The position numbers and the translations under genes are program-made. DNA of 12,220 nt, taken from a virus (Duplodnaviria; Heunggongvirae; Uroviricota; Caudoviricetes). Position 1 is the first letter of the stretch; each line of letters starts with the position of its first letter. The stretch lies in IMG/VR virus record IMGVR_UViG_2534681937_000031, one strand, 5' to 3'. This document shows, piece by piece, positions 8,493 through 10,109 of the stretch. Below the pieces are notes generated by a model. It did not search any database. It worked only from the letters and a program-made list of their open reading frames with translations, and was not told where the DNA came from.

Positions 8493-9050
8493 ATGACCAC
8501 TATTACCAAAGATCGACTGCTGACAATCCAGCATTGGCGCGAAACATACGGACCGGGTAGCAACGTTGTGCTTCCAGCAGAAGAAGCGGAAGAGCTGGCA
8601 CGGATTGCGCTGGCATCACTGGCAGCAGTATCGGATGAACGAGCAGCCTATGAATTATTTATGGAGAAGCGTTTCGGGGAATCTGTAGATCGCCGCAGAG
8701 CAAAAAATGGCGATAGAGAATACATGGCATGGGATATGGCGCTTGGCTGGATTATCTGGTGTCACCGCGCCGCCATGCTTCAGGCTGGAAACTTTCGGGA
8801 AAATAAGGGTTCGTCAACCAATAATTTTCGGATAATCTCGGAAACGTCAACCAACTCTCCGGCAATCCCTGATGAGGTGTTGTCCGCAATCCTGAAGGTC
8901 GCCAGGCTTCGTGCAGATTTCGATGCTTCTGAAGTGGACAGGCGAGGTATCGGTAGTTGTCTGGATGAGGCCGAGCAAGAACTTATCGTTACCATTAACG
9001 AATACGCCAGTCAGATCGCAGTAGAAGCGACACAGGGGGAGAACCAATGA
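8493..9050 (+). CDS. hypothetical protein
   Basis: 185-aa ORF, ATG 8493 two nt after the upstream stop; its stop overlaps the start of a 25-codon ORF (ATGA). Confidence 0.55.
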   Translation: MTTITKDRLLTIQHWRETYGPGSNVVLPAEEAEELARIALASLAAVSDERAAYELFMEKRFGESVDRRRAKNGDREYMAWDMALGWIIWCHRAAMLQAGNFRENKGSSTNNFRIISETSTNSPAIPDEVLSAILKVARLRADFDASEVDRRGIGSCLDEAEQELIVTINEYASQIAVEATQGENQ

Positions 9051-9124
9051 GCCGGCCAGATGCATTTGCAGGCGTTGCTATAGCTATTGCTTTTCTAGTA
9101 TATGTTATTTGTCGGTGGGGGTAA
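9047..9124 (+). CDS. candidate small hydrophobic peptide (25 aa, MSRPDAFAGVAIAIAFLVYVICRWG)
   Basis: Not in the ORF track (under 60 aa). ATG overlaps the stop of the 8493-9050 gene; single predicted TM helix. Confidence 0.3.
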   Translation: MSRPDAFAGVAIAIAFLVYVICRWG

Positions 9125-9159
9125 AAACGTTCGCCGGGATTCACACCAAGGGAGGGAAT

Positions 9160-9264
9160 ATGTCGGATGATATTTCACTGGTAATGGAAGGCGCTCTGGC
9201 TGTTATTGCTGTTGTGGGTGTTTACTGCCTGGTTGTGTTTTTGATGGAGCGCCTGGGGAACTGA
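9160..9264 (+). CDS. candidate small hydrophobic peptide (34 aa, MSDDISLVMEGALAVIAVVGVYCLVVFLMERLGN)
   Basis: Not in the ORF track. Strong SD AAGGGAGGG just upstream of ATG 9160; single predicted TM helix; followed by a palindrome. Confidence 0.4.
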   Translation: MSDDISLVMEGALAVIAVVGVYCLVVFLMERLGN

Positions 9265-9507
9265 ATTCATTCCGTATGGGAATTCCCATATCGGGCAAAA
9301 CGGTTTGCTGTAAAGCGAGAGTTAAGTAGAATTGCTGCGGGTGCTTGAGGCTGTCTGCCTCGGGCATGCCACCGTAAGGCAGACAGAGAAAAGCCCCAGT
9401 TAACATTACGCGTCCTGCAAGACGCTTAACATTAATCTGAGGCCCAATCTATGCTTCACAAACGTAGGTTAGCCTCTTACGCGCCGAAAGGCAAGGAGAA
9501 GCAGGTT
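9265..9507. other. hok leader/regulatory region (expected site of mRNA fold-back elements and any Sok-like antisense RNA)
   Basis: Contains a 22-bp near-palindrome CCGTATGGGAATTCCCATATCGG (9272-9294) and the hairpin CTGTCTGCC-N18-GGCAGACAG (9351-9386). An in-frame upstream ATG at 9451 with GAGG SD precedes hok. Antisense RNA not located. Confidence 0.35.
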
Positions 9508-9663
9508 ATGAAGCAGCAAAAGGCGATGTTAATCGCCCTGATCGTCATCTGTTTAACCGTCATAGTGACGGCACTGGTAACGAGGAAAGACCTCTGCGAG
9601 GTACGAATCCGAACCGGCCAGACGGAGGTCGCTGTCTTCACAGCTTACGAACCTGAGGAGTAA
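9508..9663 (+). CDS. hokD: Hok/Gef-family type I toxin (HokD/RelF-like, 51 aa)
   Basis: Translation MKQQKAMLIALIVICLTVIVTALVTRKDLCEVRIRTGQTEVAVFTAYEPEE matches the Hok family and, as recalled, E. coli HokD. AAGGAG 9 nt upstream of ATG. Confidence 0.9.
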   Translation: MKQQKAMLIALIVICLTVIVTALVTRKDLCEVRIRTGQTEVAVFTAYEPEE

Positions 9664-9731
9664 GAGACCAGGCGGGGGAGAAATCCCTCGCCACCGCTGA
9701 TGTGTCAGGCATCCTCAACGCACCCGCACTT

Positions 9732-9759
9732 AACCCGCTTCGGCGGGTTTTGTTTTTTC
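9732..9759 (+). terminator. rho-independent terminator (AACCCGC-TTCG-GCGGGTT followed by TTTGTTTTTTCT)
   Basis: 7-bp GC-rich stem, tetraloop and U-rich tract about 70 nt after the hok stop. Confidence 0.75.
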
Positions 9760-9779
9760 TGGTCGTTCTGGTTTACAAT
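9750..9779 (+). promoter_or_regulatory. possible promoter restarting rightward transcription (-35 TTGTTT, -10 TACAAT)
   Basis: TACAAT at 9774-9779 with TTGTTT 18 bp upstream; overlaps the terminator U-tract. Confidence 0.3.
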
Positions 9780-9830
9780 CCATCCGTCAGCCTGAACAAC
9801 TGGCACCTGCTGCGCCAGCAGAGAAAACAG

Positions 9831-10109
9831 ATGGCGCACGATACCAAATTTTACAATTCGGATAACTCTGCCGCCCCTGCCAGCAGGCACGGGCGGCGTT
9901 CTCATGCATTCAAATCTGACTGGTATCAGCACGACCCCTGCACCGAAGAACAGGCTGAATGGCTGATTCAGTGTTACCGCAGGCGCGGATACGAGGTTAA
10001 GAAAGCCCTCAGTCTCGATTATCGTCACTGGATAATCTCCGTCAGGCTTCCTTACTCCGAACGCCCACCGCGTCCGTCCCGCACATTCCAGCAACGCATC
10101 TGGAGGTAA
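9831..10109 (+). CDS. hypothetical protein, possibly Rem-like (Qin prophage context)
   Basis: The track ORF 9702-10109 spans the terminator, so the start is moved to ATG 9831 (92 aa). Position between hok and a DUF968 gene mirrors the Qin hokD-rem-ydfU order as recalled. Confidence 0.45.
   Translation: MAHDTKFYNSDNSAAPASRHGRRSHAFKSDWYQHDPCTEEQAEWLIQCYRRRGYEVKKALSLDYRHWIISVRLPYSERPPRPSRTFQQRIWR

Follow-up and report, generated by a model that had tools for sequence, protein, structure and literature searches.

The region 9339-9757 of the window (the whole 12,220-nt stretch of viral DNA analysed here) very probably forms a hok/mok/sok cassette, an intact type I toxin-antitoxin locus belonging to the HokC/HokD/HokW branch, located in the nin region of a lambdoid prophage of Shiga-toxin-producing E. 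coli (STEC); we put the probability of this reading at about 0.9. Both promoters, the two elements of the 5'/3' pairing, the Shine-Dalgarno (SD) sequence and ATG of mok, the SD of hok, the coding sequence (CDS) and the terminator were all found intact in the window (Table 1). The locus is of an already known kind in its usual form, and the start codon upstream of hok and in frame with it is that of the mok leader gene.

The hok gene and its genomic setting

The 51-aa Hok protein scored 82.9 bits against the PF01848 profile (cut-off 22), which places it among the Hok/Gef-family membrane toxins, and it also matched PHROG 251; in the NCBIfam search the matches to Hok families were all below threshold. 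The protein is identical to HokD (RelF) of K-12, and the CDS is identical to that of K-12 hokD in the Qin prophage at the nucleotide level. The 3' UTR, the fold-back element and the terminator of the two loci are also essentially identical, and both lie at the same position, upstream of a DUF968 gene and late-region genes (in K-12, ydfU and the putative antiterminator Q gene ydfT). However, K-12 hokD is homologous to the window only from about 9495 onwards: in K-12, relBE has taken the place of the promoter, the element for 5' pairing, the start of mok and the -10 of sok. In the window, hok is not directly preceded by relBE, and the mok start, sok and the 5' element are present. The window therefore holds the complete form of a locus that is kept in K-12 only as a remnant.

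The 601 bases around the locus were 100% identical to sequence in the chromosomes of Shiga-toxin E. coli strains, among them O157:H7 and O26. Of 5426 complete E. coli genomes, 4739 contain similar sequence; the copy number per genome has a median of 2 and a maximum of 10. In one genome with a match, the 5' side of the locus carries genes for an integrase, an excisionase, an exonuclease, dicB, a LexA-family (cI-type) repressor, a Cro/CI-family regulator and replication, and the 3' side carries DUF968, RusA and late genes. The PGAP/RefSeq annotation at the locus consists of the 51-aa "HokD" toxin alone, so that the RefSeq record is incomplete, mok and sok being missing from it. The name HokD hints at the truncated K-12 locus, whereas the window copy is complete; since the window has the complete leader and K-12 hokD does not, the PGAP name describes the protein and not the type of locus.

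Table 1 Features of the hok/mok/sok locus, in window coordinates
Feature	Position	Strand	Details
hok promoter (putative)	9304-9332	+	-35 TTTGCT 9304-9309, 17-nt spacer, -10 TAGAAT 9327-9332
Full-length hok mRNA (predicted)	9339-9757	+	about 420 nt; from Rfam RF01794, MFE fold and terminator
5' end element (tac-type)	9339-9350	+	GGGUGCUUGAGG; pairs with 3' fold-back element
First stem-loop of hok mRNA	9351-9386	+	arms CTGTCTGCC / GGCAGACAG; conserved
sok antisense RNA (predicted)	9389-9459	-	71 nt, 5' end 9459; 933W sokW annotation maps exactly, 66/71 identical
Leader helix	9393-9443	+	9393-9401 with 9435-9443; GCCCCAGUU / AUCUGAGGC; sequesters mok SD
mok	9451-9663	+	70-codon leader ORF (19 codons + Hok); SD GAGG 9439-9442, 8-nt spacer
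sok promoter (predicted)	9466-9494	-	-35 TTGCCT 9494 to 9489, 17-nt spacer, -10 TAACCT 9471 to 9466
CUCUUAC box	9474-9480	+	pairs with GUAAGAG 9660-9666 across hok stop; long-range closing helix
hok SD	9493-9498	+	AAGGAG, 9 nt before ATG 9508; read from the sequence; invariant in alignment
hok toxin gene	9508-9663	+	51 aa; PF01848 (Hok/Gef family), E 1.2e-23
Helix burying hok start	9509-9516 with 9632-9640	+	helix 6; 2 compensatory pairs
Hairpin with Tyr47 codon	9641-9655	+	CAG[CUUACGAAC]CUG; UAC 9646-9648; putative TadA-type A-to-I editing site motif
3'-UTR stem-loop	9671-9692	+	GGCGGGGG / CCCUCGCC; helix 12
3' fold-back element (fbi-type)	9713-9725	+	CCUCAA-C-GCACCC; pairs with 9339-9350
Intrinsic terminator of hok mRNA	9732-9757	+	stem AACCCGC-TTCG-GCGGGTT 9732-9749, then T-run TTGTTTTTT

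The reading frame of mok

The original prediction had described an upstream start with a GAGG SD, in frame with hok and giving a 70-aa product, and this description was accurate: ATG 9451 precedes the hok ATG by 57 nt (19 codons), and its frame runs to the hok stop. It had also called 9451 the only upstream ATG, which is correct in part. ATG 9366 is present in the leader as well (a 3-codon ORF ending at 9377), but 9451 is the sole ATG, GTG or TTG start in the leader whose ORF overlaps hok. The window accordingly has a leader ORF of the mok type, with its own SD, running across the hok ribosome-binding site, and its ATG was invariant among 69 unique relatives.

The statement that no separate mok frame is seen, made by comparison with plasmid R1, is mistaken as an interpretation. 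In R1 mok is indeed out of frame: the classic R1 mok starts 58 nt upstream of hok, has 70 codons and ends 3 nt (one codon) before the hok stop. The window, with its offset of 57 nt, does not have this layout, in which mok starts 3n+1 nt upstream and follows a separate frame through hok. Judged by its layout, however, the in-frame ORF is itself the mok of this branch of the family and not an anomaly. In K-12, mokC (16751..16960) is hokC (16751..16903) with a 19-codon in-frame extension, the two sharing a stop and differing by 57 nt. In phage 933W, mokW starts 57 nt upstream of hokW, in frame, and has 70 aa, as in the window; the decades-old 933W record AF125520 already shows this in-frame layout of mokW/hokW together with a 71-nt sokW. 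When mapped to the window, the 933W annotation falls on mok 9451-9663, hok 9508-9663 and sok 9389-9459 (minus strand). As mokC and mokW are both in frame, the family is not defined by the frame of mok. Out-of-frame arrangements are found in K-12 mokB and in phage Rac, whose annotated mok lies 58 nt upstream, and an R1-type IncFII plasmid variant has mok in frame with 71 aa. The orf69 of gef is presumably the in-frame mokC, with the K-12 annotation as support; in the literature searched, outside which the original gef and Pedersen & Gerdes papers lay, we found no explicit statement on an in-frame mokC and no useful account of "orf69" or gef.

Among the 41 genome loci (dereplicated by species) in which a mok start was recognisable, mok was 57 nt upstream and in frame in 31, 58 nt upstream and out of frame in 8 and 56 nt upstream in 2. 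Among 80 viral contigs whose Hok is 100% identical to that of the window, the corresponding numbers were 66, 0 and 11, with 3 contigs having no leader. In the 56-nt class, the stop of a 19-codon mok overlaps the hok start in an ATGA. Loci with an identical Hok thus vary in offset between 57, 58 and 56 nt, which means that mok is constrained as a translated stretch and not as a protein. What is conserved in mok is the SD, the ATG and the open frame over the hok ribosome-binding site, while the extension shows no conservation at the amino-acid level and mok codons 2-5 are hypervariable. The frame of mok is therefore incidental, and the conserved entity is a translatable ORF leading from the SD/ATG across the hok ribosome-binding site. 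The alternative frame through hok, at the 58-nt offset, was open over 48 of 51 codons; since 11% of random synonymous recodings did as well, selection for keeping this frame open was not significant.

Another explanation is that the 70-aa ORF is a real single toxin gene that starts at ATG 9451, with the internal ATG 9508 unused and no coupling of the mok type. This ORF is unbroken and is preceded by an SD of its own, the in-frame arrangement is the majority state in both censuses, and the basic extension would be compatible with the same N-in membrane topology. We nevertheless consider this explanation very improbable. The loci that share the identical 51-aa Hok include those in which mok is out of frame (58 nt) or ends after 19 codons (56 nt), and there Hok must start at its own ATG. 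The SD of ATG 9508 is invariant and is the sole upstream element kept by K-12 hokD, within the 70-aa ORF the Pfam and PHROG matches are confined to residues 20-69, the extension varies as described above, and the short HokW ORF alone is toxic (PMC8621323). Because mok is in frame in the window, any ribosome that starts at 9451 must produce a Hok of 70 aa, extended at its N-terminus by a basic stretch. Our literature search found no report on the accumulation or toxicity of a 70-aa in-frame mok/Hok species.

Folding of the hok mRNA and the sok gene

We place the start of hok transcription at G 9339, where the Rfam hok-leader model also begins. The GTAGAAT located 7 nt upstream of GGGTGC and the TT(T/G)GC at -35 were kept in nearly all related loci, and the sequence further upstream diverges among them. 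Neither the hok nor the sok promoter passed a generic sigma-70 consensus scan of 9150-9850. A promoter-like TTAACA/TATGCT pair (9426-9455, plus strand) was rejected as being at chance level (1 found versus 0.6 expected). The strong terminator that had been proposed at the mRNA end was recovered by a scan of the same 9150-9850 region, and it is conserved in K-12 hokD.

The Rfam model RF01794 matched 9339-9513 on the plus strand, from model position 1 to 157 of 157, with 114.9 bits (gathering score 59), and the structured leader is thus on the hok strand. Although RF01794 is "sok" by name, it lay on the hok strand in 4 of 4 reference loci, opposite the annotated sokC, sokB and sokW. RF01794 really models the hok mRNA leader, and a match is good evidence for the leader and none for Sok. 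The leader of K-12 hokC (gef) matches the same model, and the R1 leader belongs to the same Rfam family with 87 bits.

Two leader palindromes had been seen as part of the regulated transcript. One of them, 9351-9386, is the conserved first stem-loop of the mRNA. The other, 9272-9294, is real (with a perfect core at 9275-9290) but lies upstream of the hok promoter and outside the transcript; because of this position and its presence in only 11 of 113 related loci, we regard it as part of the local prophage backbone, outside the cassette.

The proposal of a fold-back-regulated hok transcript, for which RNA folding had been named as a check, is supported by the predicted fold. In the minimum-free-energy (MFE) fold of 9339-9758, the 5' end of the mRNA is paired with the 3' fold-back element that precedes the terminator (9339-9350 with 9713-9725; z = -6.5, with 0 of 100 shuffles as good). 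The 12-bp 5'/3' duplex was predicted in 112 of 112 loci (RNAduplex, per sequence), which comprise 20 distinct sequence combinations, and it showed compensatory changes between U-A and C-G and between G-C and A-U. In the alignment described next, its closure was U-A in 24 sequences and C-G in 11.

A MAFFT alignment was made of 37 distinct relatives, which came from Escherichia, Kluyvera, Photorhabdus, Pantoea and other genera, and the RNAalifold consensus contained 65 pairs with 98.2% of cells paired. We counted 16 compensatory pairs; shuffles gave 9.6 +/- 1.2, with none of 500 reaching 16, and slid controls gave 2-8. The shuffle-based statistics are inflated by the kinship of the compared loci. 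In the Photorhabdus group, which lacks the bulged C, the MAFFT register of the 3' fold-back element is off by one, and the second half of the duplex was therefore judged per sequence (RNAduplex) and not by column counts.

The first stem-loop (helix 2) had 8 pairs, 2 of them compensatory, with 99.7% of cells paired. The helix that buries the mok SD (helix 3) was present in the MFE fold and covaried, with column pairs AU:26/GC:11 and AU:16/GC:9/UA:2; it encloses the hairpin 9398-9437, the complement of which is the Sok stem-loop. The 7 pairs of the CUCUUAC helix (helix 4) were 100% paired, and because they are invariant this helix yields no covariation evidence. The Tyr47 hairpin (helix 11) showed column pairs CG:22/UA:14 and GC:22/AU:13. 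A preprint (bioRxiv 10.1101/2025.08.07.668861) reports that hokB is edited, as is the corresponding codon of hokC/D/E.

When the 3' element was removed in silico and 9339-9708 was refolded, the 5' end paired with 9390-9397 and the mok start lay on a hairpin closed by GAGGC/GCCUC. This "active" structure, an MFE prediction, would agree with the R1 activation model.

Whether an antisense RNA is present had been left open by the original prediction. By every sequence criterion Sok is present, and by analogy with its relatives it is presumably expressed from the window copy. The predicted sok RNA overlaps the mok initiation region, its gene is convergent with hok, and its promoter lies inside the mok/hok initiation region. 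K-12 sokC, which begins 8 nt inside mokC, has a start that maps to 9459, the same as the predicted sok start in the window. Both promoter hexamers were nearly invariant among the 69 unique relatives; the -10 has a 3/6 match to the sigma-70 consensus. In the predicted fold of the RNA, at -30.7 kcal/mol (z = -4.8), 12-17 nt at the 5' end form a single-stranded tail, which is followed by a long hairpin and a terminal CUUUU.

The closest characterised relative is hokW/mokW/sokW of the Stx2 phages 933W and Sp5 (VT2-Sakai), which has the same cassette architecture in a lambdoid STEC phage. The 933W hokW mRNA region is identical to the window at 359 of 387 positions, and sok has the same coordinates once mapped, with its five differences all in the 5' tail/mok-start patch. 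The -10 and -35 hexamers of Sp5 sokW are identical to those of the window. The two loci differ at the C-terminus of Hok (…FTAYEPEE in the window, …FVDYESEK in HokW), and the 3' flank and terminator differ from 933W beyond 9727. K-12 HokC is 82% identical to the window Hok, and hokC has a leader hairpin 18 nt shorter and has lost its 3' fold-back element to IS186. In R1 hok/mok/sok (parB), the tac-type 5' end, the leader hairpins, the mok SD and ATG, the sok promoter in the mok/hok initiation region, the 3' fold-back element and the terminator follow one another in the same order as in the window. The R1 locus is plasmid-borne, unlike the prophage locus of the window; its classic sequence had 100% matches among plasmid records, of which 2661 reached ≥99% identity. 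R1 Hok is ~44% identical to HokW (PMC8621323), a figure that applies to HokW and not to the window Hok.

Mode of action and the variable Sok-tail patch

From the R1 and hokW-sokW paradigms, the cassette would act as follows. The full-length hok mRNA would be stable, inert and closed; in the predicted, conserved structure its first 12 nt are paired with the fold-back element, and internal helices cover the SD of mok, the start codon of hok and the CUCUUAC box. Slow 3' trimming would remove the fold-back element and allow the RNA to refold. The 5' tail of Sok would then bind the mok initiation region and block mok translation, and the Sok/mRNA duplex would be cut by RNase III. If the unstable Sok is lost, on prophage induction or loss of the prophage, mok would be translated, and the SD and start of hok would be opened; Hok would depolarise the inner membrane, and the cell would be killed or arrested. 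At loci with an in-frame mok, mok translation would itself yield the extended Hok.

An intact sequence does not prove activity, and the locus might instead be a silent or decaying chromosomal relic like the hok loci of K-12, with neither Sok control nor killing in operation. All five of five K-12 hok loci are inactivated, including hokC, cut by IS186, and hokD, whose leader was lost to relBE. In earlier tests intact chromosomal loci gave no post-segregational killing, and damaged copies exist among the relatives (a broken 5' element in L008, a frameshifted hok in L050, and ATA in place of the mok ATG in L033). We nevertheless consider a relic unlikely, as every cassette element is intact in the window copy, many STEC genomes carry the locus at 100% identity, and the 93%-identical hokW-sokW, from the same kind of prophage, is expressed, repressed by Sok and makes toxin on induction (PMC8621323). 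In prophage Sp5, both hokW and sokW RNAs were seen by Northern analysis, and HokW was toxic when the short ORF was used alone. Mutation of the sokW -10 from TAGGTTA to CCGGCTC (primers YO-421/422) abolished Sok repression, sokW in trans partly restored it, and on prophage induction sokW vanished and HokW was made (PMC8621323). For the C-terminal FLAG fusion of HokW in that study, PMC8621323 does not state whether the product had the 51-aa or the 70-aa size. The hokW-sokW pair is thus an experimentally shown type I toxin-antitoxin system (PMC8621323), and the window copy, known from its sequence, is best read as an intact member of the same group.

The most variable stretch of the otherwise near-invariant cassette was the 22-nt patch 9444-9465, with up to 2.1 bits per column and 23 haplotypes among 69 unique relatives, compared with 5-14 haplotypes in other 22-nt segments. 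The patch spans the mok SD-ATG spacer, mok codons 2-5, the target of the Sok 5' tail and the interval from the sok -10 to +1, and co-resident prophage copies mostly differ in it. One possible interpretation is that in genomes with 4-8 copies the patch may be under diversifying selection by which each Sok stays specific to the hok mRNA of its own locus. In addition, the 70-aa Hok isoform with a basic N-terminus, produced from the in-frame mok, might itself be toxic. Taken jointly, these two readings are tentative and rather doubtful.

Beyond annotation, the significance of the locus is slight. Automated pipelines expecting an R1-like out-of-frame mok will miss most prophage copies. If the 70-aa isoform is toxic, Sok would block the toxin directly and not merely via translational coupling, and the Sok-tail patch could bear on cross-talk between the numerous hok/sok copies that STEC genomes carry.

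Rfam model, internal promoter-like match and upstream sequence

The Rfam model RF01794 is named "sok antitoxin", and its matches always lay on the hok-sense strand, extending from the mRNA +1 to the AUG of hok, the 51-aa toxin gene, in the window as well as in related hok loci (L-numbers in the table below). The annotated sokC and sokB of E. coli K-12 and sokW of phage 933W are on the strand opposite to these matches. RF01794 represents the hok mRNA leader, and the antisense RNA is not modelled by it. We found only one sigma-70-like consensus match in the region, situated within the leader on the hok strand, which is at the chance level (1 found versus 0.6 expected).

The original prediction placed two strong palindromes in the leader. 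The one centred on GAATTC does exist, but it is not part of the leader, as it lies upstream of the hok promoter and is found in just 11 of 113 related hok loci. No T-run was seen beside it on either strand, and this palindrome is outside the hok cassette. The two very small ORFs found shortly upstream of the cassette encode hydrophobic products and were without a Pfam or PHROG match.

Features of the cassette, its upstream region and related loci
Feature	Location	Strand	Remark
Hydrophobic ORF, 25 aa	window 9047-9124	+	
Hydrophobic ORF, 34 aa	window 9160-9264	+	RefSeq: hypothetical protein
Palindrome	window 9272-9294		directly past stop of 34-aa ORF
RF01794 match	window 9339-9513	+	
RF01794 match	L002 502-654	hok-sense	
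RF01794 match	L004 667-818	hok-sense	
RF01794 match	L059 320-494	hok-sense	
RF01794 match	L003 232-403	hok-sense	
Sigma-70-like match	window 9426-9455	+	TTAACA, 18 nt, TATGCT
Hypervariable patch	window 9444-9465		
Hairpin CAG[CUUACGAAC]CUG	window 9641-9655		Tyr47 codon UAC, 9646-9648
56-nt class, examples	L062, L072, L098, L138; also L017, L019		first four viral

Hairpin at the Tyr47 codon

The Tyr47 codon of hok sits in the loop of a short hairpin, and this loop is similar to the tRNA-Arg anticodon loop. Two stem pairs covary (CG:22/UA:14 and GC:22/AU:13). TadA-dependent A-to-I recoding of Tyr to Cys has been reported for hok mRNAs (bioRxiv 10.1101/2025.08.07.668861); the hairpin is consistent with such recoding.

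Variant loci and host labels

In one class of relatives, the ATG of the leader ORF mok is 56 nt upstream of hok; mok then has 19 codons, and its stop codon overlaps the start of hok in an ATGA. Eleven of the 80 viral loci that encode an identical Hok belong to this class, as do two genome loci, and it offers a natural contrast to the in-frame mok form. In L008 (E. coli ECMA0423, CP178302.1), Hok is identical and mok starts 58 nt upstream, out of frame. Because its 5' end is GACTGCATGTGGC where GGGTGCTTGAGGC is expected, the 5'/3' pairing element is disrupted, and this copy may be decaying or deregulated. Two Hok matches, L020 and L025, come from very short contigs that carry the names Acinetobacter idrijaensis (96% protein identity) and Xanthomonas pisi (100%). 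A further match (H69), 96.8% identical at the DNA level, is from a record named "Actinobacillus phage". All three look more like contaminating E. coli sequence or misassigned records than like evidence of true hosts.

Variable patch at the mok start

The rest of the cassette is near-invariant, whereas one patch is hypervariable, with 23 haplotypes versus 5-14 in other 22-nt segments among 69 unique relatives, in all of which the mok ATG within it is invariant. The patch spans the spacer between the SD and ATG of mok together with codons 2-5 of this ORF, and on the sok side it corresponds to the Sok 5' tail and the sok -10 to +1 interval. Copies sharing one genome mostly differ in this patch, which may set Sok/hok specificity.
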